Notes under the pieces: model-generated | What the model was told of the DNA's origin: nothing | Seen by the model: only the letters and a program-made list of their open reading frames with translations | Database searches by the model: none | Assembly: GCA_964448235.1 (NCBI GenBank) | Contig: CAYUWD010000001.1 | Coordinates: forward strand, 1 to 62,358 | DNA from: an uncultured Bacteroidales bacterium | GTDB taxonomy: Bacteria; Bacteroidota; Bacteroidia; Bacteroidales; ML635J-15 | Direction: 5' to 3' | DNA: 62,358 nt | Translations under genes and position numbers: made by a program | Part shown: positions 1 to 17,942 of the stretch, piece after piece | How the letters are laid out: every line of letters starts with the position of its first letter | Numbering within the stretch: the first letter of the stretch is position 1

Positions 1-15
1 TTCCAGGTTGTGGAG

Positions 16-2931
16 CTAATCTGGGTTGCGGCAACGCCCACGTTGAGCAAGACATTCTAAGTTTCCCCACTCAGTATTGCCTTCAACATATGGTATAGGT
101 GTACCATCCGGATAGTGAGTAACTTTAAGATTTTCTGCCATCCATTCTTGTTCTCCAATTATTACAGTTGGATAAGTATTTCCGTCAATATCTGTTACAC
201 TCCCACCAATATTACTTGATACCCATAAATAATTATCTTTTGATTCAATATCTGTTCCAAATTCATTCTCAACGGTAAGGCTAATGTCATAGGTTCCCAT
301 AATGGTATAAATATGAATTGGATTTCGGTCTGTACTAGTTGATCCATCTCCAAAATCCCAAAACCAAGTTTCAGCGTTGTTTGAAAAATCATAAAACTGG
401 ACTTCTTGATTTATATATGTTAATGTATTGTCAGCTGTAAATTCTGCTATCACAGGAACAACTTCATCATAAACATCAACTTCAATACTAGCTTCGCACT
501 CATTTGCATCTTTTACATAAATGATATGTGTTCCTGTTACAACTACTGTAAAGGTATTGTTAGATGAATAGCTAACTTGATCATCAATAGAGAATTGATA
601 CGGTGCCTCACCACCAGAAACACCAACCTCAATTACATTACCCATCACATTAGTATTGATTATTAAATTTGTATTTTCACAAACATCCGTTGGAGCTACA
701 AAGCTTTCCGATGCATAACAACCTGCATCATCACGAACCATAAATAAATATGTTTCACCATTAACTATACTAATTTGTGGTACAGTTGAACTAAAACTAA
801 TACCATCTGTAGAATATGTATAAGGTGGTGTTCCCATAGAAGGTATTGGCTGAATAATTCCATCTTCTTCCGATACGACAACAGATAATGATGTTTGTGA
901 ACAATCGTTTGATTCTGTATATGCAGAAATTATAACAGGTGAATTATTGATATTATGTCCATCACAATCTAAAACAGAAACATCCAATTGAGATTCCTCA
1001 AGTCCTCCTGGTGTCCATGTAACACTTGCAATTCCTTCAGAATTCGTAAATACATTTATGCTATTTACGGTTCCACCATTTTGAGGCTCAAAGTGTACAA
1101 TAGCTCCAGGCACAATAATTCCGTGGTTTCCAATTACCTTAACAGTAATTTCTTGCTCTAATTCATTACCTTCTGAGTAGATTTGATTGTTACCGGAAAC
1201 AATCTCTATATTATGAGGAAACTGAAGGTTGTAAAATCCTTGTTCCCAAGTTTTACTAACATCAAATAAAGTGTAGCCTAATACTTCTGCTAAAGCCCCT
1301 ACAGTTAATTCACCACCAATATCCATACTTGCCTGCCAATTATCATTATAAAAGCAAAGGTTAAGCTCTTCTGTTATTCTTGCGTCAATATATGGTCCAA
1401 CAATGCCATAAATTTTAAATGTAATGTTTGGTCCTATATCAAAGTGCTGTGTCAAATCTCCTGTGATCTCAAAAGTATTATCTGTTTCAACAAATTCTTG
1501 TTCATCATAGATATAATCCCACTCACCGTCTTCATACTCTACTGCTGCAACATATTGTGATGTTTTGTTATATGAATGTGTTGCTTCCATTTCAGCACCA
1601 ACCTCAATTGAAAGATTACCATCCACTTTAAACTCAGCTAATATCCAGACAGGAACTCCACCAATTAAAAATACAATATTTTTAGGATAAGAAATAAGTG
1701 TGTAATGATGATCCAAGACACTTGTAGATGCTGTAGCTGATAGTACCAATTCATAATTTCGTTCAATAATTCCATTATACATCCCCATTTTAAATGACTT
1801 TAGTCTAAGCCTCTTATAATCAAGATCTGCTCTGAAATTTGGATTAAAAGAATATGAACCGTTTAGTTCTAGCATTATATTACCCAAATCAAGTATTGTC
1901 TGATTGAATTCTAAATCTATCAATGATCCACCGTCTTTCTCAGACATATTATTAATACTTACACCAGGGTGTACATATGTAGGTTCTGAATCAACAATGT
2001 AATAGTAGTTCCCATTTTTAAGTTCCGGATTTGAAATCAACTCTGCACGTGTCGGCATATGATTTAGTCTTTTGTATGATGATTTTTTTGATCCGTTTAA
2101 ACTTGTGTCAAGACTAAATGCCTGTCCTACATCGAATGCTCCGTATTTAGTAATATCTTCTAAACTAGATTGAACTGTTTGCATTGTGTAAACATCTCCC
2201 ACATTAGTAAAAGACTCTACTTTGCGCATAAAACCATTATTGATTAGTCCTAATAAAACTGTAGAATCTGTAATCTCAGGAACAGGATCGCTAAACTCAA
2301 TTACATACTCTCCAGCTTCTAACTGTCCTGCATCACTTGTTAGGATATCTGTTTCATCAACAACTACTAATTCATCTATATAAATATTTTCTCTAAATTG
2401 AATCTCAATAGTATCAGAACTAGTACCACAAACATTGGAAACTTCCCAAACAACCTGATAAATTGTATCTGTTCCATCAAATGCAGTATAAGGATCTGAA
2501 CTGTCCGTAAACAAACCTCCATTTCCGCTATAGACCGACCAACTTCCACTTGATGCACTATTTGTGCTTCCCATCATGACAACACTATTTCCCGGCACAA
2601 TTCTATCTGCACCTGCATTTGCTATTGGTTTTAATTGTACATGGCTTACTTCAGAATATATTGGAGGACATTCCGCGAATCTTACCATAGCTCTAAAATA
2701 TTTTTCTTCATTAGGGAAATACTTATAAATAGTATCGTTTGCTCCATGAATATTAATCCAATTTGTGTTATCTAATGAACTTTGCCATTGTACTGTACCG
2801 TACTGATAATTTGATGTCTTTAAAACTATAGTATCACTATCACCACACACATCCACAGTTTGTGCAAATATGCTTGAATTTGCTAAAAATAAAATGCAAA
2901 TTATATATATTATTGATAATACTCTTTTCAT
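16..2931 (-). CDS. Large secreted multidomain surface protein (Ig/PKD-like, Big_1-like, SprB-like, PKD) with a C-terminal Fib_succ_major (FISUMP) domain that appears truncated
   Basis: Signal peptide; PIANAGAD PKD-like start; GTPPYTYS/GGEAPYQFS SprB-like motifs; WFWDFGDG PKD; DIDGNTYPTVIIGEQEWMAENLKVTHYPDG FISUMP start. Similarity to paralogues stops after WGNLE (about nt 55). Confidence 0.8.
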   Translation of the reverse strand: MKRVLSIIYIICILFLANSSIFAQTVDVCGDSDTIVLKTSNYQYGTVQWQSSLDNTNWINIHGANDTIYKYFPNEEKYFRAMVRFAECPPIYSEVSHVQLKPIANAGADRIVPGNSVVMMGSTNSASSGSWSVYSGNGGLFTDSSDPYTAFDGTDTIYQVVWEVSNVCGTSSDTIEIQFRENIYIDELVVVDETDILTSDAGQLEAGEYVIEFSDPVPEITDSTVLLGLINNGFMRKVESFTNVGDVYTMQTVQSSLEDITKYGAFDVGQAFSLDTSLNGSKKSSYKRLNHMPTRAELISNPELKNGNYYYIVDSEPTYVHPGVSINNMSEKDGGSLIDLEFNQTILDLGNIMLELNGSYSFNPNFRADLDYKRLRLKSFKMGMYNGIIERNYELVLSATASTSVLDHHYTLISYPKNIVFLIGGVPVWILAEFKVDGNLSIEVGAEMEATHSYNKTSQYVAAVEYEDGEWDYIYDEQEFVETDNTFEITGDLTQHFDIGPNITFKIYGIVGPYIDARITEELNLCFYNDNWQASMDIGGELTVGALAEVLGYTLFDVSKTWEQGFYNLQFPHNIEIVSGNNQIYSEGNELEQEITVKVIGNHGIIVPGAIVHFEPQNGGTVNSINVFTNSEGIASVTWTPGGLEESQLDVSVLDCDGHNINNSPVIISAYTESNDCSQTSLSVVVSEEDGIIQPIPSMGTPPYTYSTDGISFSSTVPQISIVNGETYLFMVRDDAGCYASESFVAPTDVCENTNLIINTNVMGNVIEVGVSGGEAPYQFSIDDQVSYSSNNTFTVVVTGTHIIYVKDANECEASIEVDVYDEVVPVIAEFTADNTLTYINQEVQFYDFSNNAETWFWDFGDGSTSTDRNPIHIYTIMGTYDISLTVENEFGTDIESKDNYLWVSSNIGGSVTDIDGNTYPTVIIGEQEWMAENLKVTHYPDGTPIPYVEGNTEWGNLECLAQRGRCRNPD

Positions 2932-2935
2932 AATC

Positions 2936-3331
2936 TTAATTTTTGCTTATTACAATTTTGGTTGATACTCGTCCAACTTCAGTTGATAAACTCACCGAAT
3001 AAACTCCAGGTTGTAGGTCTTTAAAATCGAATGCTTTTACACATTTTTTTGACTCACTAAAGAACTTTTCTTGATACAATAATTGCCCTGAAGCATTTAC
3101 AATTGAAATTTCAAACCTACCAAGCTCTACCTTTGAATTGATTTCCAATTCAAATTGACCGGTATTTGGATTTGGTAATACAGTTACAGATAAGTTTTCA
3201 TTTTGCATGAATTGGTTTTGTTCAATACTTAAATTTGAACATGGATTTGGCAGTTCTAAACTGACTGATGTTTGTGCTGAAAGAAACTTCACAGCAATAA
3301 GTAAAATTAAAATAGATATTGTCTTTTTCAT
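2936..3331 (-). CDS. Small T9SS type A sorting (CTD) domain protein with only a ~25-aa passenger
   Basis: Signal peptide, then VLPNPNTGQF...VNASGQLL...LQPGVYSV...KIVI, the typical CTD signature. Confidence 0.85.
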   Translation of the reverse strand: MKKTISILILLIAVKFLSAQTSVSLELPNPCSNLSIEQNQFMQNENLSVTVLPNPNTGQFELEINSKVELGRFEISIVNASGQLLYQEKFFSESKKCVKAFDFKDLQPGVYSVSLSTEVGRVSTKIVISKN

Positions 3332-3342
3332 AATATAATTTT

Positions 3343-5643
3343 CTAGTTTTTAACACACCTTACAGATGTGCCATAAGACTTGTATGTAGTTGTAGTGCTT
3401 ATGTGGTTATTATACTGATTCATATGTTTTACCCTTGCTTCAGTTGCTGTTGAATTGGTGCTAGTCCACCAACTTGCAATGTCACCAGCACCTTCAAACT
3501 CTCCAGGGTCTGCAGTTCCTGTACCCCAACTTGATCTTCCTCCTGTCGGATAGGCAGCAAAGCCATAATAGTCATATCCATTACCTACCGCTGTGTTCCA
3601 TCCGGAAGTTGATGCTATTGCTTTTTGAACATCATAATATAATCCATTAGCATTAAGGTCATCAAAAATATAATAATTTAAAATATCCCATTCGTCTTCT
3701 GTTGGTAAATGCCATCCATTAGGACAAACTCCTTGTACCTGATTACCAGTAGATGGAACACCATTAGTTGCAGCAGCATAAGTGTATAATGCACCATAAC
3801 CTGTTGCATAAGATGAATTATTATTATAAAAACAATATGCTTTATCTGTATCATTATTCTCAAGATCTCCCCAATCTAAGAAATCAGTAACAAGAGGTAT
3901 TGGAGTCCCATCAGAATAATGTGTTGATCTCAAATTTTCGGACAACCATTCTTGTGTGCCAATTACGACACTTCCATAGTTATTCCCATCATAATCTGTA
4001 ACACCTCCTCCTTGCGAATAGAAGGTAGTTGTTGTGAATTGAACCTGATTACCATAAGCTGTTCCGTTAGCATTTGTTGCATAAGCTCTCACATAATAAG
4101 TTTGTCCAGGTGTTAAGTCTGATAAGGAGGAAATGAATACTCCGTTTCCAGAACCATTACTCGTTACTTCATCAGATAAATCAGGATTTGAACTTGTACC
4201 ATAGCAAACTCCCCGCTGTGTAACACTAGAACCACCGCTAGAGGTAACATTACCTCCAGTTTGAGCCCTAATATGTGCAATATCTGTTATTTCAGTTGTT
4301 ATTACGCTTGGAATACCTGTGTCCCCGGTTGTAAAACAAATTTCATTTCCATAAATTGTTCCGTAATAGTAAGTTGCATAAGCTCTTACATAATAAGTTG
4401 TATTTGTTTCTAAGCTACTTATATAGGAGTTAAAGCTACCAAAATTATCTCCCTCATTACTATAACCAATATTATTTTCAATAGTTGGGTATGACTGATT
4501 ACTCCAGCAAATTCCATACTGATAAGCATAACCACAAACATCACTAACCTCTCCACTGCAATAAGCACTGTTATAATCAATATCTGTTGCATTATTTGTT
4601 ATGACACTTGAACCGAAGGTTGTAAAAGAAATATTTTCTCCATATGCCGTACCGGCTCCATTTGTTGCATATGCCCTAAAATAATAAGTAGTTGATGGTA
4701 ATAAATATCCAACAAGCTTATCGAAATTTCCAGTTCCTGACCCACTAGCTATAATCTCATCATCAATAGTAGGATAAATATGAGTTGCATAGCAAAAGCC
4801 CTTATATGTTTCGTCATATAAGTCTAATGAAGAAACTACATTTCCATGTAATCTTACCGAATAACAACTTAAATCACTAACTGATTCTGTAATTACTTCT
4901 GGTAATAATGTCCCAAATTCTAAATATACTATATCATTATTTTCTGGTGTTAATTCGATTGTGTGACTTAAAAATAAATCTACTCCCAATGTCCCTGTTA
5001 ATGGGCCTGAGAATGCATAAATTTCTACAACATCTCCCGGTTGATATGACCATCCACTTTTTGAGTCAGAAATATTTTTAGTTGATAGCGTATTCTCTTT
5101 CATATTTTCTGAGAATACGTATTTATCACCTAAATCCAAAAGTTTGAAAGAATTACTTGCCTGTTTTGAATCTACTCGAACTATAACCGGACAATTATTA
5201 GGAATTTCTAACTCTATTTGATCAGAACCACTTGAAACGCTATATGATTTCTGATTAAGAATCTGACCAGCAAGATTGATTACTTTTATTGACAAATTAT
5301 CAGATTCAATAAAATTTGTCTGTAGATAAAATCTATTGTTTATTACGTCTATATTTAATAATCCAGAATCAAAACTATTATCTAAAATTCCTACTGACAA
5401 ACCAAATGTCCCGGCTGTTAGATTCACATCAATACTACTTAAGTCTGTTCTTAGTCCTGCAGTAGTAAAAGACAAATCTGAACCATTAGAAATATTTTCT
5501 ATTGTAATATGATCAAGACTTATTGGATCTGGAGTTACAGGAGTTGTTCCACTATTTACTGATTGTAATGTTATAATAACATCCTGTGAAAATAGGATTG
5601 TTGATAGCATTGTTGCTAAAATAATTAAATAAGTTTTTTTCAT
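3343..5643 (-). CDS. Secreted protein: internal CTD-like domain + 3 FN3-like repeats + Fib_succ_major tip (766 aa)
   Basis: ATG 5643 (MKKTYLIIL) preferred over 5670, which overlaps the upstream gene. YYxRAYA repeats x3; DYDGNNYGSVVIGTQEWLSENL...GWHLPT...SVRCVKN. Confidence 0.85.
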   Translation of the reverse strand: MKKTYLIILATMLSTILFSQDVIITLQSVNSGTTPVTPDPISLDHITIENISNGSDLSFTTAGLRTDLSSIDVNLTAGTFGLSVGILDNSFDSGLLNIDVINNRFYLQTNFIESDNLSIKVINLAGQILNQKSYSVSSGSDQIELEIPNNCPVIVRVDSKQASNSFKLLDLGDKYVFSENMKENTLSTKNISDSKSGWSYQPGDVVEIYAFSGPLTGTLGVDLFLSHTIELTPENNDIVYLEFGTLLPEVITESVSDLSCYSVRLHGNVVSSLDLYDETYKGFCYATHIYPTIDDEIIASGSGTGNFDKLVGYLLPSTTYYFRAYATNGAGTAYGENISFTTFGSSVITNNATDIDYNSAYCSGEVSDVCGYAYQYGICWSNQSYPTIENNIGYSNEGDNFGSFNSYISSLETNTTYYVRAYATYYYGTIYGNEICFTTGDTGIPSVITTEITDIAHIRAQTGGNVTSSGGSSVTQRGVCYGTSSNPDLSDEVTSNGSGNGVFISSLSDLTPGQTYYVRAYATNANGTAYGNQVQFTTTTFYSQGGGVTDYDGNNYGSVVIGTQEWLSENLRSTHYSDGTPIPLVTDFLDWGDLENNDTDKAYCFYNNNSSYATGYGALYTYAAATNGVPSTGNQVQGVCPNGWHLPTEDEWDILNYYIFDDLNANGLYYDVQKAIASTSGWNTAVGNGYDYYGFAAYPTGGRSSWGTGTADPGEFEGAGDIASWWTSTNSTATEARVKHMNQYNNHISTTTTYKSYGTSVRCVKN

Positions 5644-5654
5644 TTTGTTTTTGT

Positions 5655-7082
5655 TTAATTTTTTATACATCTTACAGAACCTGCATCGTTTTTTCGACCA
5701 AGTCCTGCATCAATTTTTAATTCTAGCCCAGTATTAACATTTCCTGTATATGCCTCATCAGAAATAATCTCATCACTAGCCCACCATTTAGCTATATTAA
5801 ACCCCCAAACAAACATACCTTGATATAAAGTACCACCAAAACGAATTCCACTATGTACTCCATTAAAACCAAAAGTGTTAATTCCATTGTTATCATCAAA
5901 CCAGCCCGAAATTGATTTTAAAGCATGTCCTTCATTACCAGAGTATCCGTTTGAACCAACGTAATCTTTAAGTTGCTGCCATTCTGCAGAGCTAGGCAAA
6001 TGCCAGCCATCAGGACAAACACCTTGTACTCCACTTGGGTTAGAGGAACTACTTACAGCATTATCTCCCATTGCTGCTGCCCATGAATAAAGTGCCCCAT
6101 AAGGACTACTTGTATTATTATTGTAGTAACAAAATGCATCATCAGTATTATTTGCAAGCAAATTACCCCATGTTATACCATCTGTTATGTAAGGAATAGG
6201 AGTGCCATCAGGATAATGTGTTGCTTTAAGATTTTCTTTTAACCAACATTGTGTTCCGATTTGAACTGTTGCATACACATTGCCGTTAATATCCATAACA
6301 TAGCCACATCCCGGAAATTCAGATGTTGTGAAGCTTTTTTGATTGCCATATGCTGTTCCAATATTATTCGTTGCATAAGCTCTGACATAATAAGTTGTAT
6401 TTTCTAAAAGTTGAATAATATTGCTTACAAATACACCAGAGCCACTACCATCAATAGTTTTAATATCAGCTATTGTAGGATTACTAGATGTACTCCAGCA
6501 TAAACCTCTTTCTGTAACAGAACTACCACCATCATCCGTGATGTTTCCACCGCAAGTTGCAGACACCGGTGCAACATTGCTTGGATTATCGGTTGTTAGA
6601 GTTGGGATATCAAGTGTTGTAAACATTTGTTGATTCCCATAAGAAACCCCTACACTGTTTTTTGCATAAGCTCTAACATAATAGATAGTTCCTAATGAAA
6701 GTCCTGTTAAGTTACAAGTAAAAGAACCCAAACCAATACCTTCAATTGTAAAATAGTCAGCAATTGTTGGATTCGAAGATGTACTCCAGCAAACACCACG
6801 CTCAAATATTTCTGCTCCTCCATTTTCTGTAATATTTCCACCACAAGTTGCTGTTATGCCTGTGATATCACTTACGCTATTTGTAGTTAGTGCTGCAAGA
6901 CTGAGCAATTTTCCGTTTTTATTTAACACTCCACTTGATGAAACCTCCCCGTTTTGATTTACAAAACTTGAACTTGTGTTAGTTTGCTCTCCTGTGTTTG
7001 TGATGGATTGGGAGAAAACAATACTACAAAAACATAACAAAATAAACAGAGGACTAATTTTAAATATATTGTTTCTAAGCAT
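5655..7082 (-). CDS. Secreted protein: 37-aa N-terminal motif + 2 FN3-like repeats + Fib_succ_major tip
   Basis: Signal peptide; two RGxCWSTSSNPT...YYVRAYA repeats; QCWLKENL...CPDGWHLPS...SVRCIKN. Confidence 0.88.
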   Translation of the reverse strand: MLRNNIFKISPLFILLCFCSIVFSQSITNTGEQTNTSSSFVNQNGEVSSSGVLNKNGKLLSLAALTTNSVSDITGITATCGGNITENGGAEIFERGVCWSTSSNPTIADYFTIEGIGLGSFTCNLTGLSLGTIYYVRAYAKNSVGVSYGNQQMFTTLDIPTLTTDNPSNVAPVSATCGGNITDDGGSSVTERGLCWSTSSNPTIADIKTIDGSGSGVFVSNIIQLLENTTYYVRAYATNNIGTAYGNQKSFTTSEFPGCGYVMDINGNVYATVQIGTQCWLKENLKATHYPDGTPIPYITDGITWGNLLANNTDDAFCYYNNNTSSPYGALYSWAAAMGDNAVSSSSNPSGVQGVCPDGWHLPSSAEWQQLKDYVGSNGYSGNEGHALKSISGWFDDNNGINTFGFNGVHSGIRFGGTLYQGMFVWGFNIAKWWASDEIISDEAYTGNVNTGLELKIDAGLGRKNDAGSVRCIKN

Positions 7083-7097
7083 GATTTCTTGTTTAAA

Positions 7098-9140
7098 TTA
7101 ATCCTTGATGCAACGTACAGCACGCCCGTCTGAACGTCTGTTACTGATCTCGTTAGCAGAGCTACTACCTATTTCCAAGAAATAAATATTGGCACCATTT
7201 ACAGTACTCGAATAATAGTTACCCCAAGACGAGCTATAGATTGAACCATTAAGGTAGTCGCGTACACCTCCCACTGTCAATTTAAGAGGCGAGGCAAAAG
7301 CACCCTCTGCATCATTGCTAACCCAACTTTGGCGTTCTGAAGTCCACTCTGTTTTAGTAGGTAATCGGTAACCACTTGGACAGGGGTTGTTGATACCACT
7401 TTCACCCTGCCAAAGATTGTCGTTTTGTGTGCTGCGCCAATCATCTGACTGGATAATAAAGTTAGAATGTCCAGGTGTATCGCTATTGCTTAATATTGTT
7501 GTTGTACCAGATGTTCTTAATTGGTGCCCATCAGAAGCACGACCCCACTGGTACAGGTCACCGTAAGAGTCTGCATCGGTACTACTGGTGGCTACTTGTG
7601 AAGCACCGAGATTGCGGTCAAGCCAACATTTATTAGAACTAGCTACTATTCCATATCCTGCTGGAGGTGTAATGCCTGCACAAGGATTACTTGTCGTAAA
7701 CGTAATTTGATTACCATAATTTGTGCCAACTGAATTAGTTGCATATGCCCTTGCATAATATGTTGCCCCAGGACTTAAACTGGTTATATTACTAGTAAAA
7801 CTACCTGTCCCCATACCATCCGTTGTATGAGAATCATTCGTTGTGGGATTCTGTGAAGTACTCCAGCATACACCTCGCGAAGTAACATTAGTTCCTCCAT
7901 CTGATGATACATTTCCCCCACTTATAGCAGAATTTGAGGTTATTGATGATGCTGAATATGTAGATATTGTTGGGGGTATAGTTCCTGATGTAAAAATAAC
8001 CTGATTACCATAACTTGTGCCTTCAGAGTTCGTCACATAAGCTCTTACATAATATGTTGTTCCGGGAATTAATCCCGTAATACTGCTTGTAAAACTACCT
8101 GTGCCGCTGCCATCTGTTGTATGAGAATCAGCTATTGTAGGATTTTGTGAGGTACTCCAGCAAACACCTTGAGCAGTTACTGGTATCCCTCCGTCAGAGG
8201 TTACATTACCGCCACAAGTTGCAGTTGTTCCAGCAATATTTGTTACCTCATTAGTACTAATCTCCGGCAACCCAGCTGTTAATGTCATAAAACTAACCTC
8301 ATCACCATAAGAAACTCCTTTCGCGTTTTTTGCATACGCTTTTACAAAGTACTCGGTATTGTAGTCAAATCCGGTTATATTGGCACTATACTCACCTTCC
8401 TGGTCATATCCGATATGGATTTGGTCTGCAATTGTTGGATTTGATACAGTATTCCAACAAAACCCACTTTGGGTAATGTTTAGACCACCATTGTCAATTA
8501 TATTTCCGTTAAATATTGCGCTATTTGTTGTTATATTATCAACAGATATTGTTTGAACATCTGGCAATTGAAATATTTTACCCGAAGAGCTGATTAATGG
8601 AGTGTTAGTAACTTTGCCATTTTCACCAACAAAATTATCACTAGTTGAACTTTCTTGCCCATATTTTGTAACAGCAGAAATAGGTTCATTACTAACTATT
8701 AGTTTATATCCCTTTAAAGTATCTGGGACCTCATAAGCCATTCCCAAGAAAGAAACTCTATAATCTAAAACAATTTCCAACTCATTTAATCCAATACTTT
8801 CGATTGCTGGCAAACCCTCAATTGTAAAACAACCATTTGTGTTTGCTAGCCAAAACCCAGAATTGGTATTAGCAGTAAATGATAGATTTGACGGTAGATT
8901 TAAAATGCTAAATACTCTAACAGAATCAACAGCAAGAGTATATCCCTGCAACTCAACTTCTGTAGGAATAACAGCATTAATCACTGTACTATAAGCCTCT
9001 CCAACAACAGCGGGAGGAATATTTATTATTGTGTCAGGATAAAACCCGGGATCTGTATAATTTAAATCCGGATTACATTGCGCATTTAAAACACTTTGTG
9101 CAAAAAATATTGCTATTATTATAAATAATAATTTTTTCAT
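7098..9140 (-). CDS. Secreted protein: Ig-like N-domain + 37-aa motif + 3 FN3-like repeats + Fib_succ_major-like tip
   Basis: Signal peptide; three stalk repeats; WLDRNLGA...GDLYQWGR...NPCPSGYRLPT...AVRCIKD. Confidence 0.88.
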   Translation of the reverse strand: MKKLLFIIIAIFFAQSVLNAQCNPDLNYTDPGFYPDTIINIPPAVVGEAYSTVINAVIPTEVELQGYTLAVDSVRVFSILNLPSNLSFTANTNSGFWLANTNGCFTIEGLPAIESIGLNELEIVLDYRVSFLGMAYEVPDTLKGYKLIVSNEPISAVTKYGQESSTSDNFVGENGKVTNTPLISSSGKIFQLPDVQTISVDNITTNSAIFNGNIIDNGGLNITQSGFCWNTVSNPTIADQIHIGYDQEGEYSANITGFDYNTEYFVKAYAKNAKGVSYGDEVSFMTLTAGLPEISTNEVTNIAGTTATCGGNVTSDGGIPVTAQGVCWSTSQNPTIADSHTTDGSGTGSFTSSITGLIPGTTYYVRAYVTNSEGTSYGNQVIFTSGTIPPTISTYSASSITSNSAISGGNVSSDGGTNVTSRGVCWSTSQNPTTNDSHTTDGMGTGSFTSNITSLSPGATYYARAYATNSVGTNYGNQITFTTSNPCAGITPPAGYGIVASSNKCWLDRNLGASQVATSSTDADSYGDLYQWGRASDGHQLRTSGTTTILSNSDTPGHSNFIIQSDDWRSTQNDNLWQGESGINNPCPSGYRLPTKTEWTSERQSWVSNDAEGAFASPLKLTVGGVRDYLNGSIYSSSWGNYYSSTVNGANIYFLEIGSSSANEISNRRSDGRAVRCIKD

Positions 9141-9151
9141 GATAAAGTATT

Positions 9152-10174
9152 TTAATAATAGTATTCTAATTGGATTCTATCACCAGCATCTAAATCATGA
9201 TTTCCATTGTTAACAGGGTTATACTCTAAACTTGTCCCTGTTGCCGTAAATGCCGAGTTGCTAATTCTTACACCATTAATATACAATTTAATAATACAAT
9301 TAGTCGCTGGAGTATTTGAAAGAGTAAATGTTGTTTGCCCTTCTGTTGCAGCAAATTCATCTACAACTTCAACTATTATTGTTTGCGCGTCTGTTATTCC
9401 GTATCCACTTAGTGTAGTAGGTGTAGATGTAATTTCTGACCAATCTCCTGTTAAATCGTCACTAGCATCGGTATCCATATTAGCGGGAACATCTGTTAGG
9501 TCGTTATAGCTGCCACTAAAATCATCTGTCGCATCAATATCCAAATTTACCGGAACATCTGTAAGACTATTATAACTGCCGTCAAAGTCATCAGAATTAT
9601 CAGTATCCCAACCAGTAAAATCTGGAGTATTTTGCACATCAGCCCAATCCACACTTCCACCAGCAACCTGCCCAGGCTCAAACTTACCTGTTATTTCATT
9701 ATATATAAGAGCATCCCCATCTTGAACATCAGTAAGATCTATATAAGCAACATCTCCTGCGGCAAATGCATAAGGCACAGAAACAAACTCTATTGTTCCA
9801 AGAGTTAAATCAAAGGAAAATGTATTAGTTGGATCATATTCTATTTTTAGAAACTTACTTGCATCTGCCCACGCAATGTTTTCAAATGTTCCAACAGTGA
9901 CATAATTTGCATCTCTGCCAATTTGGAACGAAAACGAACCATAAGCATTAGTTTGTAATGCACGTAATTCTTGATAAACAACAGTGCCCTCGGGAGTTTC
10001 TTCGAGAACCGACAAACGAATTTGAATATTCGTATTTACCATTGGATTACTTTCGGCATCACGTGCAATTGCCTGAAAATTAATTGCTTGTGGAACCTGA
10101 GCAAACAGGCTTGTTAGCCCAAAACTAAATATTGCTGTAAGCAATAAAACTGATTTTTGTAAAACTTTTTTCAT
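9152..10174 (-). CDS. Secreted protein with phage tail-fibre-like repeats
   Basis: Signal peptide; VPQAINFQAIARD N-domain common in Bacteroidota; 22-aa repeats with SGSYNDLTDVP; PTTLSGYGITDA motif. Confidence 0.8.
   Translation of the reverse strand: MKKVLQKSVLLLTAIFSFGLTSLFAQVPQAINFQAIARDAESNPMVNTNIQIRLSVLEETPEGTVVYQELRALQTNAYGSFSFQIGRDANYVTVGTFENIAWADASKFLKIEYDPTNTFSFDLTLGTIEFVSVPYAFAAGDVAYIDLTDVQDGDALIYNEITGKFEPGQVAGGSVDWADVQNTPDFTGWDTDNSDDFDGSYNSLTDVPVNLDIDATDDFSGSYNDLTDVPANMDTDASDDLTGDWSEITSTPTTLSGYGITDAQTIIVEVVDEFAATEGQTTFTLSNTPATNCIIKLYINGVRISNSAFTATGTSLEYNPVNNGNHDLDAGDRIQLEYYY
9410..9607 (-). repeat. Three tandem 66-bp (22-aa) coding repeats DxDxxDDFxGSYNxLTDVPxN
   Basis: DTDNSDDFDGSYNSLTDVPVNL / DIDATDDFSGSYNDLTDVPANM / DTDASDDLTGDWSEITSTPTTL. 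Confidence 0.85.
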
Positions 10175-10193
10175 GTTATTTTGATTATTATGA

Positions 10194-10697
10194 TTACAAC
10201 TTAATAAATTTAATTTCTCCGATATTTTCGCCTACTGCGGAATAGCCTTTAATAAAGTAATTGCCGCTTGTAAGTTTGGATACATCTAATTGATAGATTT
10301 TTTCGGCACTTGATTTTGTTTGCTGCAAAACAATTTTGCCGGCAGCATCGAATACCTGAAATGCAACGGTTTCGCTTTTTAGTCCGTTGATTTGCAGATT
10401 TAGCAAATCCTCAACCGGGTTCGGATAAACCAATGTTCGCATTTGCTGCTCAACAAGCAACGGTTTTGCAGTTGGCATATCAGGAATACCACCAGTATCT
10501 TCATTATCGCTTTGCCCACCGGCATCCAAACTTATGCCATCGGCATTAATAGAAAATACAAATAACTCGCCAATGGTAGCACTAATTCCTTCATTAGAAA
10601 TACCGCCGGAGGATAGGGTTATACGATCGAGGTTTTGGCCTTGCAGAAATGTAATTGCTGCAAACAGAGTGATGAGAATTAGAAGTGTTTTTTTCAT
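10194..10697 (-). CDS. Small T9SS CTD protein with a ~50-aa passenger
   Basis: Signal peptide; VYPNPVEDLLNL...VFDAAGKIV...LTSGNYFIK...KFIKL. Confidence 0.88.
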   Translation of the reverse strand: MKKTLLILITLFAAITFLQGQNLDRITLSSGGISNEGISATIGELFVFSINADGISLDAGGQSDNEDTGGIPDMPTAKPLLVEQQMRTLVYPNPVEDLLNLQINGLKSETVAFQVFDAAGKIVLQQTKSSAEKIYQLDVSKLTSGNYFIKGYSAVGENIGEIKFIKL

Positions 10698-10752
10698 AGT
10701 TTATTTATTTTACTTAATAATCAATATTTTAATAAACATTAGTTATATATGC

Positions 10753-13038
10753 TTAAAATGAACGGATTGCTCTAACTGCATAACCAGCGTTCGTTTTCAA
10801 ATAAGACTGGGAAACCCCTGAGCTACAAGACACCCAATACGCATATGTTGAAGTGTGTTCGGAAGACGACCAATAGTATCCTGTACTTAAATTAGGAATA
10901 TATGCACTGCTTAAATACATTTGATAAAGTTCATCTTTAGAAGGTAAATACCAATCCGAATAGCCACTGAGTGACAAATCACTGCATATCCTGGCGGCTA
11001 TACCTGATTCGCTACACAAATTCACTATCGCTGTTGTGTTGGCTTGACCTGTACCAAATGCTGTTGAAGTTGTTCCAATTAGTGTTCCTGAACAACCCCA
11101 CGTAACACCACTCAACGCTTGATCCGATGCAGCAGCAATTAACCCATGTTGTCCTGTGCCATCCAAATAAAAAATCACTCCCCCACCATAACTTTGCCCT
11201 AGCGTATAAGTAGTTGTAAAGCTAATCTGGTTTCCATAGGATGTTCCAGCAGAATTGGTAGCATAAGCTCTTACATAATAAGTTGTTAGCGGGTCTAAAC
11301 CTGTGATATAACTTGTAAACGAATTGGTACCAGTACCATCAGTTGTAAGTTGATTAGCAGTTGTCGGATTTTGACTTGTACTCCAACAAACTCCTTTTGC
11401 TGTTATTGGTGCACCGCCGTCGCTTGAAATTGAGCCTCCACTAGATGCAGAATTGCCATTAATGCTTGAAGCTGTAACAGTTGTAATTGAAGGAGTGCTA
11501 GGGTTTGTTGTTGTGAAACTTTGTTGTGTTCCATAACTTGTGCCTGCTGCATTTGTAGCATAAGCTCTTACAAAATAAGTTGTGCCAGCAGTTAGTCCAT
11601 CTAGATTGCTGGAGAAGCTACCAACAGAACCAGTACCTAATAGTGTTTTATTATCGCTTGTCGTTGGGTTTGCATTTAATCCCCAACAATGACCATGTTG
11701 AGTTACATTAGTAGACCCGAGGCTTGAAATGCTGCCACCTGCAGTTGCTGAGACAAGCGTAATGTTTGTAATATTGCCTGTAGTTACACTGGGTGCTGTA
11801 GGAGAAGAACTTGTAGTAAATGAAACCTGTGAACTATATCCGGTTCCTGCAGCATTTGTAGCGTATGCTCTTATATAATATGTTGTATTTGGAGAAAGAC
11901 TAGTCAAAGAACTATTAAAAGACCCAGTTGTACTCATAGTGCCCAAAGTCGTTTTATAATTACTCGTTGTAGGATTAGATGAAGTAGCCCAGCAATGTCC
12001 ATGTTGAGTAGCGCTTCCTGATCCCAGATTAGTAATTGCACCCTGAACATCGGCAGTAGTTTCTGTAACATTATTAGCAGCATCAGTGGTTAATGTTGGC
12101 ACAGATGCTGTGGAGGTAGTGGTAAAAATCTGATCAGCACTATACCCAGTACCGCTGCTGTTGGTTGCATAAGCCCTTACATAGTATGTGGTATTTGGTG
12201 ACAACCCCGACAAATCTGAAGAAAAGGAACCCGTGGCAGAAGTAGGTCCTAAAGTCGTAACGTTATTCCCAGTCGTTGGGTTTGGTGTTGTTGACCAACA
12301 ATGTCCTCTTTGTATGACATTGGAGCTACCAATACTTGAAATATTTCCTGAAATCTGTGCGGTTTCTGATGATATATTTGTTGCGGCTGCACAAGTAACA
12401 ACAGGTGAATTTGGGTTTGCGATTTCCATACTTATTGAAATTGTAGCGTTCCCACCATTTGATGTAATTGAAATACTTTGGCTATAGTAACCTTGATTTA
12501 AACCAGTCCTGTCAATTGTAATATTCAAATAACTTACTTCAGTGGTTGTGCTTCCACTCAATGGATTGGGAGTTAACCAATTGATATTCTCAGTTACTGT
12601 CCATTCAAGTGATGCAGAACCTGTGTTTCTTATTTCAATAGGCAAAGTTGTAAGGTTAGATCCAAAATCAAGACTGCTAACATCTACATTAAGTATTGGA
12701 ACTATTGGAGTAATTGAAATATCTCCTTTTCTTGGCGCAGTACCAAATACTGCAACTTCTTTTGTATTCGTTATATAACCCGACTTCGCAGCTTGCACAG
12801 TGTAATCACCTTCAGCAAGTCCATCAAAACTATATCTTCCATCACTACCAGTTGTATAAGATGCATTACCAGGGCTTATAGAAACTGTTACACCAGATAC
12901 AGGCTGTGATGTTTGAGAATCATTTATAATACCTTCTACTCCACCATTTTCTTCATCGTCTTTGCAAGAAATATATATTATCCCTGTACAAATAAGTAAA
13001 ACGGTTACAAAGCTAAAAAACCACTTGCTCCTTTTCAT
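10753..13038 (-). CDS. Surface lipoprotein: carboxypeptidase-regulatory-like + BACON-like + 4 FN3-like repeats + DUF1566 (Lcl C-terminal)-like tip
   Basis: Lipobox ISC followed by KDDEE (Bacteroidota export-signal-like); four stalk repeats; GYSDWYLPSKDEL...YWSSSE...VRAIRSF. Confidence 0.85.
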   Translation of the reverse strand: MKRSKWFFSFVTVLLICTGIIYISCKDDEENGGVEGIINDSQTSQPVSGVTVSISPGNASYTTGSDGRYSFDGLAEGDYTVQAAKSGYITNTKEVAVFGTAPRKGDISITPIVPILNVDVSSLDFGSNLTTLPIEIRNTGSASLEWTVTENINWLTPNPLSGSTTTEVSYLNITIDRTGLNQGYYSQSISITSNGGNATISISMEIANPNSPVVTCAAATNISSETAQISGNISSIGSSNVIQRGHCWSTTPNPTTGNNVTTLGPTSATGSFSSDLSGLSPNTTYYVRAYATNSSGTGYSADQIFTTTSTASVPTLTTDAANNVTETTADVQGAITNLGSGSATQHGHCWATSSNPTTSNYKTTLGTMSTTGSFNSSLTSLSPNTTYYIRAYATNAAGTGYSSQVSFTTSSSPTAPSVTTGNITNITLVSATAGGSISSLGSTNVTQHGHCWGLNANPTTSDNKTLLGTGSVGSFSSNLDGLTAGTTYFVRAYATNAAGTSYGTQQSFTTTNPSTPSITTVTASSINGNSASSGGSISSDGGAPITAKGVCWSTSQNPTTANQLTTDGTGTNSFTSYITGLDPLTTYYVRAYATNSAGTSYGNQISFTTTYTLGQSYGGGVIFYLDGTGQHGLIAAASDQALSGVTWGCSGTLIGTTSTAFGTGQANTTAIVNLCSESGIAARICSDLSLSGYSDWYLPSKDELYQMYLSSAYIPNLSTGYYWSSSEHTSTYAYWVSCSSGVSQSYLKTNAGYAVRAIRSF

Positions 13039-13042
13039 AATC

Positions 13043-14593
13043 TTACTGTTGTAAATTATAAATTTGGGTTATTTCTGATTGAGAGAGAGCACGATTATAT
13101 GTTCTGATATTATCCATCTTTCCATTGTAGGCAGGCATATTATTAAAAGTTTGATCAGCAGGATCATCACCTATATAAGTATTATTATATGTTTGCCATT
13201 TAAAAGTCGTGCTACTTTTTGTTTCATTTAAAACTGCATCGAAATAGTATTTTGCAGAACTTCCATCAAACGTAATTGTAAGCATATGCCATTGATTATC
13301 AAGATTGTTACTTATAGGATTAGTAGATTCCCAATAATTACTACTACTAACATATTGATAAAGTTTAGATGAAGAGTTAATATAAATTTTGCAATAACTA
13401 ACACTTGTAGCATATAGTACTTGGTTTGAGTTTACCGTTTTTAACCAAATATTAAGAGACCAGTTGCTTGCTGGTGGAATAATTGTGTTGGAAACATTGA
13501 TATAAGATGATCCATTAAAAGATGCACAAAATCCAATGTCATTAGGAATATCATTTGAAAATTCTACTCCCACGTTAACACCATTAAAATTACCTGTCCA
13601 GTCATTAATATTTTGGTTATCAAAAGTATAATATGCAACAAGTCCATTTGTGACCACAACAGAACTAGAAGAACTGGTTGTTAATGTTATTTGATTACTA
13701 TACCCTGTTCCAATTGAATTTGTAGCATAGGCTCTTACATAATAAACCTGATCAGGTTCTAAAGCTGTTAAGTTACTTACAAATTGTCCGGCTGATGTTG
13801 TACCACCTAATGTTGTCTTGTTATCCGATGTTGTCGGATTAGAACTTATACTCCAACAATGCCCTCGTTCAATAACTGTAGAATTGCCAATAGAGGTTAT
13901 ACTTCCTACAATATCAGCAGAGGTCTGAGTAATATTAGTTGGCTGATTACATGTTACAGAAGGAACATTATCAGCAGCAACTTCTACATTAACTGTTATT
14001 GTTTCATTTCCACCATTAGAAGTAATTGAAAACACCTGACTGTATTGCCCTGATCCCATTTGATTTCTGTCAATTGTAATCTCAATTGCATCTGTTTCGG
14101 TTGTAGTTGACCCAGAAATTGGATTTATGCTTAACCATGCAACATTCTCTGATATTTCCCAATCCAAAGAATTTGAACCAACATTGGTTATTTCTATTGG
14201 TAATACAGTATATGTTGTTCCAAAATCTAAACTTATCATATTTACTTCCAAAATTGGAACTATTGGGTCTAATGCAACATCTCCTTTTCTTACTTGACCT
14301 CCTAAAACAGTTACTGCTTTGCTATTATCACCATATCCTGTCTTACTCACATTTATAGTATAATCTCCTTCTAGCAAATCTGCAAATTGATATTTTCCAT
14401 CACTACCAGTAGTTGCAGAAGAATTTGCAGGTGTTATTGTTACATTTGCCCCCTCAATTGTTTGTGATGTTTGTGAGTCTGTTATAATTCCTTCAATTGT
14501 CCCTTCATTCTCTGATTGATTATCACATGCATTTAAGAAACTTAAAATTGATATGATCAATATTGTCAACCAATAAAATATTTTATTTTTCAT
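13043..14593 (-). CDS. Lipoprotein: carboxypeptidase-regulatory-like + BACON-like + 1 FN3-like repeat + LamG/ConA-like tip
   Basis: Lipobox NAC; GLVAYYTFD...WHMLTIT...GKMDNIRTYNRALSQSEI LamG signature. Confidence 0.85.
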   Translation of the reverse strand: MKNKIFYWLTILIISILSFLNACDNQSENEGTIEGIITDSQTSQTIEGANVTITPANSSATTGSDGKYQFADLLEGDYTINVSKTGYGDNSKAVTVLGGQVRKGDVALDPIVPILEVNMISLDFGTTYTVLPIEITNVGSNSLDWEISENVAWLSINPISGSTTTETDAIEITIDRNQMGSGQYSQVFSITSNGGNETITVNVEVAADNVPSVTCNQPTNITQTSADIVGSITSIGNSTVIERGHCWSISSNPTTSDNKTTLGGTTSAGQFVSNLTALEPDQVYYVRAYATNSIGTGYSNQITLTTSSSSSVVVTNGLVAYYTFDNQNINDWTGNFNGVNVGVEFSNDIPNDIGFCASFNGSSYINVSNTIIPPASNWSLNIWLKTVNSNQVLYATSVSYCKIYINSSSKLYQYVSSSNYWESTNPISNNLDNQWHMLTITFDGSSAKYYFDAVLNETKSSTTFKWQTYNNTYIGDDPADQTFNNMPAYNGKMDNIRTYNRALSQSEITQIYNLQQ

Positions 14594-14600
14594 TATTATA

Positions 14601-15218
14601 TTATTTAACTATCGAAACTGACACTGTTGAATTACCTCCGTTTGATATTATTGAAATTATTTGTGAATGAGAACCAGACTCCAAAGATGATCGGTCAACA
14701 GTTACCATTACATTACTTGTTTGCGAAGTTGTTATTCCACTCAATGGGTTAATACTTATCCACTCAGCATTTTCAGAAATGCTCCACTCCAAACTACCTT
14801 CTCCCGAATTAGTAATTGCAATTGGCAGTGTTGTCAAATTATTACCAAAGTCCAGGCTTGAAACAGAAAGATTAATAATTGGAATAATTGGTTGCAAAAT
14901 AACATCCCCCGAATTTGTTTGTCCGGCAATCACAGTAACACTTTTTGTATTTGTTGTATAACCATCCTTCTGGACTTCTATAGTGTAGTCTTTTGGATCA
15001 AGATTTTTAAAATCATACTTTCCATCTACTCCTGTTGTTGCAGAAGAATTTAAAGGGCTTAATGTTACATTTGCCCCTTGAATTGGTTCATTAGTCTCAG
15101 CATCTACAACAATTCCATCAATATCTCCTACCACTGGAATATCTATTGGGTCACATCCAAAACACCAAAATAACATCGTAGATAAAATGGCTAAAATTAC
15201 TTTCTTCTTTGTCATCAT
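14601..15218 (-). CDS. Lipoprotein with only the carboxypeptidase-regulatory-like + BACON-like base
   Basis: Lipobox FGC; GANVTLSP...TTGVDGKYDF; SLDFG...LPI.ITN.G...LEW, shared with the two downstream genes. Confidence 0.85.
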   Translation of the reverse strand: MMTKKKVILAILSTMLFWCFGCDPIDIPVVGDIDGIVVDAETNEPIQGANVTLSPLNSSATTGVDGKYDFKNLDPKDYTIEVQKDGYTTNTKSVTVIAGQTNSGDVILQPIIPIINLSVSSLDFGNNLTTLPIAITNSGEGSLEWSISENAEWISINPLSGITTSQTSNVMVTVDRSSLESGSHSQIISIISNGGNSTVSVSIVK

Positions 15219-15220
15219 TA

Positions 15221-16117
15221 TTAAAATTTATAAGTTAATCCAAAGTTTAATATTTTGTTATCATCATAATATGCGTAGAAGTTTGTGTCAGAATTACGTA
15301 TTAAGCCTGCATATTTTTTTGCTCCTCTTGAGGTAGATGCATCAATAATGTTATATATGTATATAGCAGCAAAACCTGCTATACAAAAATAACTACCATT
15401 TCTCCAATTATCAGCCCTGTCAATGTATTGTGTTCTAACATAAATGTTGCTATTCTGTTGAGCTAATCTAAGATTCGATTTATACTGACTATAAGTAACT
15501 ACTGTTCCTATTGCAAATAATCCAGCACTACTAAGAAAACCAATACCTTTATTTCTTTCCTTTTTATAAAATTGTCCCCATCCTGGAACAACTGCTGATC
15601 TCCATACACCACTCATTCCATATCCTTGTTTTATTTCCTTTGGAGATGCTCCGTTCTTTGGGATTTTCATAAGTACCCAATATTGATACTCAATTTTATC
15701 ATTTGTTAAAACTTTTTGCCAATAATCTTCCTCTTTCTGTAGCCCTCTTATCACAATTTCTTCTCCACTACTATTTATGACTTGAATATAATCTTCATTA
15801 TAAGAATACTTCTCTTCACCACTTAAATCTATATCAACATTTTCTTCCTTTGTATATGTTCTTTCAACCTGAATTGTTGTATTATCATTAAATGATATTT
15901 GCGAGAGAACATTTCCAATTGCAGATTCTTGTGCAGATTCTAATGAAGTAGTACTCGAACCAATGCCAGTATAATACTTGTACGAATCTCCAGTTGGGGA
16001 TTCTTCAATCCAGTCAGGTTTACTATTGCTTGATTGATCTATAATATCTTGTGAAGAAACTATTTCGTAACAAAATAATGTAAAAACAAGAAAAATTAAT
16101 TTTAGTTCTATTTTCAT
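15221..16117 (-). CDS. LPP20-like domain protein with a DUF5683-like membrane C-terminus
   Basis: KPDWI...YYTGIG...AQESA LPP20-like; SAVVPGWGQFY plus hydrophobic segments. Confidence 0.7.
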   Translation of the reverse strand: MKIELKLIFLVFTLFCYEIVSSQDIIDQSSNSKPDWIEESPTGDSYKYYTGIGSSTTSLESAQESAIGNVLSQISFNDNTTIQVERTYTKEENVDIDLSGEEKYSYNEDYIQVINSSGEEIVIRGLQKEEDYWQKVLTNDKIEYQYWVLMKIPKNGASPKEIKQGYGMSGVWRSAVVPGWGQFYKKERNKGIGFLSSAGLFAIGTVVTYSQYKSNLRLAQQNSNIYVRTQYIDRADNWRNGSYFCIAGFAAIYIYNIIDASTSRGAKKYAGLIRNSDTNFYAYYDDNKILNFGLTYKF

Positions 16118-17908: not shown

Positions 17909-17942
17909 AAAGGTATTTTAACAAATACTTTTTCCATATAAG

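Follow-up and report, generated by a model that had tools for sequence, protein, structure and literature searches.

An 11-gene string of putative surface proteins in an uncultured Bacteroidales bacterium as a likely tandem array of three anchor-and-display cassettes, with sorting-domain minis as candidate type IX adaptors

The stretch of DNA analysed here, 62,358 nucleotides (nt) of contig CAYUWD010000001.1 from an uncultured Bacteroidales bacterium (assembly GCA_964448235.1; hereafter the window), contains at positions 16-16117 of its minus strand a string of 11 genes, named g1 (15221-16117) to g11 (16-2931) in order of transcription. The original prediction saw in this string one operon for a single 11-component apparatus. 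On balance our results favour another reading, that the 11 genes are a tandem array of three independent cassettes, each made of an anchor and a display protein held at its N-terminus. In a synteny survey of about 180 fetched loci (labelled L001 onwards) three two-gene cores recur: g1 with a lipoprotein gene (cassette A), g5 with g6 (cassette B, in which g7-g9 trail) and g10 with g11 (cassette C). No locus outside this species carries all 11 genes, and the recurring synteny of the whole unit, which had been proposed as a check, is absent; the three cores recur independently instead. More tentatively, we propose a split signal for secretion and anchoring by the secretion system of type IX (T9SS), supplied by small proteins that are little more than a C-terminal sorting domain (CTD), together with a role of LPP20-DUF5683 proteins as dedicated partners of CarboxypepD_reg-BACON lipoproteins across phyla. 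That a tiny signal-bearing protein is combined with a large adhesin devoid of a sorting domain suggests an undescribed mode of mounting adhesins on the cell. The general character given to the string earlier stands, namely modular ligand-display proteins, secreted or lipid-anchored, with a common stalk module and exchangeable tips of the C-type-lectin (CLec) class. The genes are as follows (SPI, signal peptidase I).

g1, 15221-16117, minus strand: 298 aa; SPI signal peptide, LPP20-like alpha/beta domain (residues 24-153; 15659-16048), DUF5683 helical hairpin (residues 171-262; 15332-15607), C-terminal beta-hairpin (15224-15286) ending in Phe.
g2, 14601-15218, minus strand: 205-aa lipoprotein; CarboxypepD_reg and BACON_2 only, a tipless base.
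g3, 13043-14593, minus strand: 516-aa lipoprotein; CarboxypepD_reg, BACON_2, one stalk repeat (13673-13954), Laminin_G_3 tip (13070-13516).
g4, 10753-13038, minus strand: 761-aa lipoprotein; CarboxypepD_reg, BACON-like domain, four repeats (11209-12396), Lcl_C/DUF1566 tip (10762-11001).
g5, 10194-10697, minus strand: 167-aa mini; signal peptide, N-region (residues 20-88; 10434-10640), T9SS type-A CTD (10197-10430).
g6, 9152-10174, minus strand: 340 aa, CTD-less and fibre-like; signal peptide, beta-sandwich base (residues 26-172; 9659-10099), GSYNxLTDVP tail-fibre-type repeats (9380-9619), small beta-rich C-terminal tip (9155-9379).
g7, 7098-9140, minus strand: 680 aa; SPI signal peptide, private N-domain, three repeats (7689-8561), Fib_succ_major-like tip (7101-7676, sub-threshold).
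g8, 5655-7082, minus strand: 475 aa; SPI signal peptide, short N-region, two repeats (6321-6893), Fib_succ_major tip (5658-6284).
g9, 3343-5670, minus strand: 775 aa; SPI signal peptide, private beta-rich N-domain, three repeats (4027-4896), Fib_succ_major tip (3346-3990).
g10, 2936-3331, minus strand: 131-aa mini; signal peptide, N-motif of about 30 aa (L-x-L-P-N-P-C-S), T9SS type-A CTD (2948-3178).
g11, 16-2931, minus strand: 971 aa; SPI signal peptide, private N-part of about 570 aa, Big_1, SprB-like repeats, PKD (235-450), cut Fib_succ_major tip (58-186).

The possibility closest to the original prediction is that all 11 products build one multi-component adhesin or ligand-display apparatus, expressed as one operon under the adjacent LytS/LytTR system. 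The co-orientation of the genes is in its favour, and we do find 11 ATG-initiated open reading frames (ORFs) on the one strand, as had been claimed. From g1 to g11 the intergenic distances are 2, 7, 4, 55, 19, 11, 15, -16, 11 and 4 nt; nine of these lie in the range of 2-55 bp given before, while the g8/g9 junction is an overlap, which turns into +11 if g9 begins at its second Met (before MKKTYL). Judged from gap sizes, co-transcription of the 11 genes is plausible. Scans for sigma-70 promoters and terminators inside the string returned sites at chance level, which for the terminators agrees with a single unit, and neither g1 nor g5 has the Bacteroidetes -7 motif TAnnTTTG upstream. Also favourable are the stalk module common to several cassettes, with repeat 4 of g4 and repeats 2 and 3 of g7 65-68% identical, and the recurrence of eight genes, g4-g11, in L001, a contig that comes from another sample of this species and ends inside g11. 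Outside this species, however, cassette A loci have no cassette B or C marker and vice versa: the 80 species loci with a g1 homologue contain no homologue of g5, g6, g10, the g11 N-part or the g7 and g9 N-domains, and none of the g6-type and g11-type loci contains g1 or g2. In the locus of the closest g1 relative (L010, 63% identity) equivalents of g1-g4 are followed directly by rsgA, with no g5-g11. A single apparatus is, on these data, very unlikely.

Nor are the proposed regulators syntenic with any cassette. A response regulator and a sensor with Reg_prop, Y_Y_Y and His_kinase domains do lie upstream of g1, as had been described:

17008-17742, minus strand: LytTR response regulator (Pfam).
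17943-20864, minus strand: Reg_prop/Y_Y_Y/LytS-type histidine kinase (Pfam).

Their control over the string did not find support, as elsewhere the kinase and regulator are never beside g1, g6 or g11 homologues; tblastn of both against 178 loci gave two weak generic matches (L054, L027/L038), neither adjoining a cassette. Between the regulator and g1 are terminator-like hairpins and a 129-aa ORF. Perfect hairpins rich in G and C are found at 16974-16990, 3' of the response regulator, and at 17743-17942, in the kinase-regulator spacer (AAAACCCCGTAGGGGTTT; AACCCCGGACATAGTCCGGGGATT). Because hairpins follow both regulatory genes, this suggests that kinase, regulator and g1 are separate transcription units.

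In the three-cassette reading all display proteins would have an N-terminal anchor, a stalk of 0-4 repeats and a lectin-type tip at the extreme C-terminus. The stalk module of about 97 aa had been counted 13 times in five genes, and exactly 13 copies are confirmed at the DNA and protein level: one in g3, four in g4, three in g7, two in g8 and three in g9. In the DNA they form a direct-repeat family (D5, 13 members) with a spacing of 291-306 nt, and the protein copies share the motif Y[YF]x[RK]A[YF] at 29-68% pairwise identity (mean 47%). Pfam picks the module up only faintly, as fn3/NAR2; in NCBIfam it matches the N-terminal domain of NF049889 with E values of 4e-19 to 2e-38. The 13 copies are one Ig/FN3-like module, well above chance, and it is found on all three base classes as well as in g6-base proteins of other loci. 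The homologous domain of NF049889 (positions ~35-146) is the N-terminal spacer of the BT0360-type arabinanase of Bacteroides thetaiotaomicron; here, unlike in that enzyme, it stands in tandem one to four times, is joined to lectin tips and is accompanied by no glycoside hydrolase domain. Nor is the string a polysaccharide utilisation locus, as g1-g11 contain no SusC, SusD or glycoside hydrolase domains, and the TonB receptor beyond the kinase (22757-24625) has no SusD.

The differing tips and bases were largely as described. Four Fib_succ_major tips had been listed, and those of g9 (123.6 bits) and g8 (102.1 bits) are far above the cut-off of PF09603 (33.9), while that of g7 is sub-threshold (TIGR02145, 33.7 bits against 41.65, with no Pfam match) and that of g11 is truncated. 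The DUF1566-like and LamG-like tips are both above threshold, Lcl_C/DUF1566 on g4 at 36.6 bits (cut-off 34.9) and Laminin_G_3 on g3 at 68.7 bits. The bases comprise the lipoproteins g2-g4, the proteins with SPI-type signal peptides and no CTD match (g6-g9 and g11) and the CTD-only g5 and g10; the LPP20 match of g1 falls below threshold. In all eight non-lipoproteins the predicted +1 residue is Gln, in line with the "Q-rule" of Bacteroidetes. No fimbrillin, Mfa or P_gingi_FimA match was found in any of the 11 products and no Rfam match anywhere in the window, and sequence searches of the PDB (g7, g8, g6-base profile, g1 profile) gave nothing usable, since the match to 4r8o (E 1e-3) spans only a loop region.

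In cassette B, g5 encodes a small protein (a mini) that scores as type-A CTD cargo of the T9SS (Por_Secre_tail, PF18962, 54.6 bits; TIGR04183, 41.3 bits) and carries, as g10 does, the YPNP, GxY and KxxK motifs of such CTDs. Its N-region (~50 aa) has the motif AQ-NLDR-x3-SSGG-x10-GE-F-F-...-TGG. The first two contexts of g6 homologues each had a Por_Secre_tail protein of 163-167 aa directly upstream. In a metagenome scan with the g6-base alignment (80 loci), 46 distinct g6-base genes reach 45% identity and have upstream DNA; for 41 of them a g5-like mini-CTD ORF ends within 400 nt upstream, and the five genes without a mini are mostly second genes of tandem arrays. The same arrangement is seen in distant loci, where the base is 33-41% identical: in about 20 of 22 a mini of ~170 aa lies directly upstream (from a 28 nt overlap to a 53 nt gap). 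A hidden Markov model of the mini was built from 43 distinct aligned g5 homologues. The N-region of the mini is more conserved than its CTD (mean pairwise identity 55% versus 38%), and pairs of sequences that differ more in it also differ more in the fibre base (r = 0.84; partial r = 0.62 with the CTD controlled for); between CTD and base, given the N-region, the partial r is 0.29. Among 1.84 billion representative proteins the g5 N-region is almost confined to proteins of 160-173 aa, at the same position; two long matches (P0219, P0220) are Ig and granulin repeat proteins and spurious. We also considered whether the minis arose by gene fission, as a CTD split off a preceding gene, and rejected this, as each mini comes with a start codon and a signal peptide of its own and holds its place although the genes before it are unrelated.

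The partner, g6, has 308 homologues, which have only the first ~170 residues in common (55-80% identity). What stands behind this base is a Fib_succ_major, Lcl_C, PKD, Collar, Peptidase_S74 or collagen tip, in many cases joined through the stalk repeat found here, and Por_Secre_tail is absent from all 120 of the g6 homologues listed. An AlphaFold2 (AF2) model of the base is a beta-sandwich, with a predicted local distance difference test score (pLDDT) of 90-97 for residues 30-130; the fibre part, modelled as a single chain, is of low confidence. Foldseek with this model found no solved homologue at a significant level; what it returned were generic Ig/prealbumin sandwiches and N-domains of phage fibre or minor-tail proteins at E ~1e-3. 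The sole NCBIfam match of the base is NF053851 (Bdello_MAT_N), at 26-28 bits; this family is matched by 14 of 15 g6 family members, with a best E of 1.9e-8, all below the 60-bit cut-off. Two arrangements within the family stand out from the rest. In the 1064-aa g6-base protein of L122 (8004-11198), an extreme mosaic, one fibre bears two lectin domains: Fib_succ_major lies internally, and after it come more fibre repeats, two stalk repeats and an Lcl_C tip. In L105 three pairs of mini-CTD and g6-base genes lie within 9 kb, two of them on the opposite strand with g10-like, not g5-like, minis, which hints that mini types and base types can recombine.

The mosaic adhesive trimer (MAT) fibres of Bdellovibrio bacteriovorus (Caulton et al. 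2024; PMC10769870) offer the comparison for g6. Their N-domain, conserved over ~130 aa, beta-rich and right after the signal peptide, has been proposed to be cell-proximal and to bind an unidentified surface element (PMC10769870). The g6 base agrees with it in position and in its beta-sandwich fold, and the two kinds of protein share the order of signal peptide, conserved beta-rich base, phage-tail-fibre-like repeats and exchangeable C-terminal tips. MATs have many paralogues with "tip swapping", and some g6 relatives carry Peptidase_S74 or Collar tips, as MATs do. Unlike MATs, g6 belongs to a Bacteroidales host and not to a predator, its class has CLec-type tips that are diversified in relatives by diversity-generating retroelements (DGRs), and it has a dedicated mini-CTD partner gene upstream, of which no equivalent is described for MATs.

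Cassette C repeats the pattern with other proteins. The CTD of g10 is also of type A (Por_Secre_tail 46.2 bits, TIGR04183 35.6 bits). In L178 and L180/L181 the g11 homologue follows 11-14 nt after a Por_Secre_tail mini of 129-137 aa, and in L176 it has a contig-truncated g10-like mini (E 1e-19) upstream; a g10-like mini thus accompanies a g11 homologue (31-53% identity) in three of five other contexts. The minis of cassette C share a short motif of their own, L-x-L-P-[ND]-P-C, which differs from that of the g5 type. None of the g11 homologues matched over the greater part of their length (P0149-P0170) has Por_Secre_tail; some low-coverage matches, in the PKD region only, do carry PF18962.

In the window g11 itself is truncated, because its full-length homologues, of 1027-1371 aa, have a complete Fib_succ_major tip. 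The g11 tip covers the first ~29 of 187 profile positions (~43 aa) and then runs into 13 aberrant codons (19-57), which take the place of ~160 aa of the tip, with the stop at the window edge. Positions 1-57, that is, these last 13 codons (CLAQRGRCRNPD, then the stop) and 15 nt beyond, are rich in G and C compared with surroundings of 33% GC. The odd 54 nt at the window start have no other copy in the window, the 178 loci or viral contigs, and an exact-sequence look-up of g11 found no match on record. The aberrant end may stem from an insertion, from a rearrangement or from a junction of the assembly. Relatives have a DGR exactly downstream of the g11-type gene.

Fib_succ_major and DUF1566 had been put forward as variable binding domains, and this is borne out by the relatives of g6 and g11, which are DGR targets. 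In two loci, L093 with a g6-type gene (base 82% identical) and L176 with a g11-type gene (53% identical), bAvd and a reverse transcriptase (RT) come after the gene, and all mismatches between template repeat (TR) and variable region (VR), 31 of 31 and 29 of 29, respectively, are at template adenines. The VR takes up the final ~195 nt of the gene, up to its end ...GFSVRCLRD, and the template copy lies between bAvd and RT. An RT or bAvd also follows the gene in L101, L106-L109, L113/L114, L128 and L179. The pattern in L093 and L176 is the canonical DGR signature, of the "category d / CLec2" class of variable proteins that includes DUF1566/Fib_succ_major (Wu et al. 2018; PMC5758913). Proteins of this class, such as Legionella LdtA (PMC5758913), and the tip adhesins of Bacteroides type V pili (bioRxiv 10.1101/2024.11.15.621889) have in common with our proteins a C-terminal CLec-type tip ending ...SVRC[IVL][KR][DN], an N-terminal lipid or pilus anchoring and a modularity of anchor, stalk and tip. 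Unlike loci of that class, the window is without RT, Avd and TR, and unlike in type V pili the anchoring proposed here goes through the T9SS and an adaptor in trans, not through type V pilus polymerisation. A DGR inside the window was considered and rejected, as tblastn found no RT or bAvd in the 62 kb; no near-identical repeat pair (TR/VR) occurs in window positions 1-16200, and the window tips compared with the TRs of relatives have no adenine-biased divergence; a remote DGR in another part of the genome is conceivable. Two further genes were seen at the DGRs of relatives, a GIY-YIG ORF between bAvd and RT beside the g6-type gene (L093, 6549-6881) and a Y1 (IS200-like) transposase after the DGR beside the g11-type gene (L176, 6864-7292). 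The ligands of the tips are probably glycans or the surfaces of other cells.

Such features also bear on the possibility that the string is the remnant of a mobile, DGR-linked or phage-derived receptor-binding cassette, with decaying tail-fibre-like cargo, and not a working surface system. The GSYNxLTDVP repeats of g6 are of the tail-fibre type, g6 has weak PHROG tail and tail-fibre matches over residues 190-314, its base fold is similar to phage fibre N-domains (E ~1e-3), the relatives adjoin DGRs, one of them with the Y1 transposase, and g11 is cut by foreign-looking sequence at the window edge. Against this, the 62 kb contain no phage structural, integrase, RT or Avd genes, the GC content of the string is similar to that of the remaining window, all genes but g11 are intact with Bacteroidota-type signal peptides, and elsewhere pairs of mini and fibre stand among housekeeping genes, for example ATP synthase and riboflavin genes. 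We consider this the least probable of the alternatives.

Cassette A is of a different kind, in that its display proteins carry a lipid. A search for g1 homologues found 27 at E <= 1e-3 among 5.8 billion proteins, and a survey with one genome per species (80 loci) gave 29 full-length homologues, 27 of them with at least 1.2 kb of downstream DNA. In 18 of these 27 a CarboxypepD_reg-BACON ORF starts within 800 nt downstream on the same strand, and in 4-5 more it lies within 5 kb. The phyla with this pair include Bacteroidota, Neomarinimicrobiota, Cloacimonadota and Ignavibacteriota, and apart from the pair the flanks are unrelated. Three contexts that have no relation to one another show a gap of 4-18 nt between the g1 homologue and a following CarboxypepD_reg-BACON lipoprotein, which has stalk repeats and ends in a LamG or Lcl_C tip; the tip types seen after g1 homologues are LamG, Lcl_C and, once, Fib_succ (L022). 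An orthologue of g2 (203 aa, 71% identical) occupies the corresponding place in L010-L012. The partners all have a signal peptide that ends in Cys, as in a lipoprotein. In the window this Cys is followed by acidic residues (g4 C-KDDEE, g3 C-DNQSENE, g2 C-DPID), and most partners of g1 homologues are similarly acidic there, for example CSKDDD, CKEDDP and CKEEEF. Surface lipoproteins of Bacteroidota reportedly have such a lipoprotein export signal (LES) as a consensus; g2-g4 combine the lipobox Cys with an acidic LES-like motif and are predicted to be surface-exposed.

The g1 protein matches DUF5683 (PF18935) above the gathering score (33.8 versus 26.7 bits), as do 19 of 23 homologues, and LPP20 (PF02169) below it (19.1 versus 25.9 bits); g1 has no lipobox, and LPP20 is matched by eight of 23 homologues, with E values down to 4.7e-5. 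Its AF2 model (pLDDT 71.5) shows an alpha/beta domain, then a pair of long hydrophobic helices and, at the C-terminus, a beta-hairpin. All 23 aligned homologues end in F, W or L, in an alternating pattern like that of an outer-membrane beta-signal, and Foldseek with the model returned no significant structural match. In cassette A, then, g1 would be an envelope membrane protein (LPP20-like plus DUF5683) that partners three paralogous lipoproteins, which have a common CarboxypepD_reg-BACON base with no tip (g2), a LamG tip (g3) or a DUF1566 tip (g4) and for which the lipid would be the anchor. From synteny we think that g1 probably organises g2-g4 as their dedicated envelope partner. A similar gene organisation is reportedly found in Neisseria, where genes for Slam proteins are paired with those of surface lipoproteins. 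In both cases the genes of a small envelope-protein family stand beside those of the surface lipoproteins served, with adjacency as the main predictor; the analogy is one of gene organisation only, as Slam is a DUF560 barrel with TPR and g1 is LPP20-like plus DUF5683. A literature search found nothing relevant on DUF5683 or on a pairing of DUF5683 with lipoproteins. One g1 homologue has a further neighbour: L003 (and equally L004) contains two copies of a DUF6934 gene (148 aa) with a 52-aa ORF (9127-9742 and 14162-14777), one directly upstream of the g1 homologue and the other upstream of a DUF1573/HYDIN-like Ig protein, which may be a recurring regulatory or mobile pair.

Another explanation of the string is an ordinary cluster in which paralogous glycan-binding proteins, at the surface or in the periplasm, act independently; g1, g5 and g10 would then be unrelated secreted or membrane proteins, and their adjacency would reflect co-regulation or shared inheritance only. 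Paralogues of the Fib_succ_major/FISUMP, DUF1566, BACON and CarboxypepD_reg families indeed abound in Bacteroidota, the stalk repeat serves the BT0360 arabinanase family as its N-terminal spacer, g7-g9 stand without a partner gene, and the partner interactions are inferred. The gene pairs, however, behave otherwise. The mini-CTD gene keeps its place, between a few and 200 nt upstream, even where the base is down to 33% identity and the flanks are entirely different, conservation within the mini is highest outside the CTD, in a part that co-varies with the base, and the pairing of g1 with lipoproteins is maintained across phyla. Such conservation is hard to explain without functional coupling, and we regard independent action as rather unlikely.

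Returning to the reading of three cassettes, the mechanism we propose for cassettes B and C is that a mini is made together with a large, Sec-exported, CTD-less adhesin. A CTD in cis would be unsuited to g6 and g11, because it would tie down a C-terminal tip whose end, hypervariable in relatives, must remain free, and for this reason we suggest a CTD in trans, from the minis; the lack of a CTD in the g6 homologues listed and in the long-match g11 homologues is consistent with a free tip. The N-region of the mini would bind the conserved N-terminal base of the fibre, and its CTD would engage the T9SS and so supply, in trans, the signal for export and for anchoring to A-type lipopolysaccharide (A-LPS). 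After sortase processing the short N-region would remain on A-LPS as an anchoring stub, and the fibre would either cross the outer membrane with the mini or be captured afterwards. That the minis are trans-acting T9SS adaptors is a possibility we put forward with some reserve, from sequence comparison. In its CTD the mini resembles T9SS cargo such as PorA of Porphyromonas gingivalis, a small CTD protein with an accessory and not an enzymatic role (PMC7712824, PMC12152298); PorA has a FimH-like domain, whereas g5 and g10 have only 30-68 residues besides a bona fide CTD and are strictly paired with the gene of a CTD-less adhesin. At least four other CTD genes, that is, T9SS cargo of this genome, lie within the window.

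Several points weigh against this interpretation. The physical link within any of the gene pairs is inferred from synteny and co-variation, and correlations of the mirror-tree type are inflated by shared phylogeny and linkage. Export of a CTD-less protein by the T9SS on a CTD carrier is not established in the literature searched; searches on piggy-back export by the T9SS and on DGRs with the T9SS gave nothing relevant, and the pairing of a mini-CTD with a CTD-less adhesin is not described there. The similarity of g6 to MAT_N is below the NCBI family cut-off (28 versus 60 bits), two of the five g11 contexts outside the window (L177, L179) have no mini, and nine of the 27 g1 homologues have no adjacent partner. 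The location of g1 appears ambiguous in its model, where the helices look like an inner-membrane hairpin and the Phe-ending beta-hairpin like an outer-membrane beta-signal. Finally, the anchor-less g7-g9 are not explained by the model and could be periplasmic: because they have no lipobox, CTD, g6-type base or private mini, their route to the surface is outside it.

Extra lectin-tipped genes also trail the pair of mini and base in L115, L119 and L127, as g7-g9, with their private N-domains, trail g6. Just before the first stalk repeat g7 (8571-8650, residues ~165-190) and g8 (6897-6970, residues ~38-62) have a common motif, F-V-x-[EQ]-N-G-[EK]-V ... S-S-S-G-K-[IL], possibly a docking or strand-donor segment. 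A faint Por_Secre_tail-like stretch in the N-domain of g9 (5200-5335, residues ~113-157; E 0.44) was considered as a hidden CTD and rejected.

The LepA encoded in the window falls into a cluster, at 90% or more, with MAG proteins of Bacteroidales/Marinilabiliales. Elsewhere in the window there are further CTD proteins, and envelope proteins whose folds are related to those of the string. At 24876-31487 three CTD genes lie in a row, for a papain-type C1 peptidase with Lectin_like and CTD, an FG-GAP protein with CTD and a CTD protein with an unassigned N-part, followed by a 659-aa ORF with no Pfam match, and at 49327-50511 there is an Exo_endo_phos nuclease with CTD. Within 21303-24625 an unusual fusion of inosine-uridine nucleoside hydrolase and FmdE (484 aa) lies directly downstream of the TonB-dependent receptor. 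A 271-aa CarbopepD_reg_2 envelope protein is encoded at 36356-37171 and a 618-aa protein with three PEGA domains at 42779-44635.

If the pairs do not interact, the string is an ordinary cluster of paralogous adhesins. The DGR-targeted relatives are a new and easily recognised class of DGR targets in Bacteroidales of anaerobic digesters, rumen and freshwater, and with the pair of g1 and lipoprotein DUF5683 gains its first functional handle. By present understanding, cargo of the T9SS must carry a CTD of its own, which becomes the attachment point; attachment in cis is incompatible with adhesins whose binding site or DGR variable region is the extreme C-terminus. If our proposal is true, the minis would be a candidate class for the partner that MAT-type fibre bases still lack at the surface, and the display of such adhesins in Bacteroidota would be explained by a CTD adaptor acting in trans, which would also widen the range of T9SS cargo.

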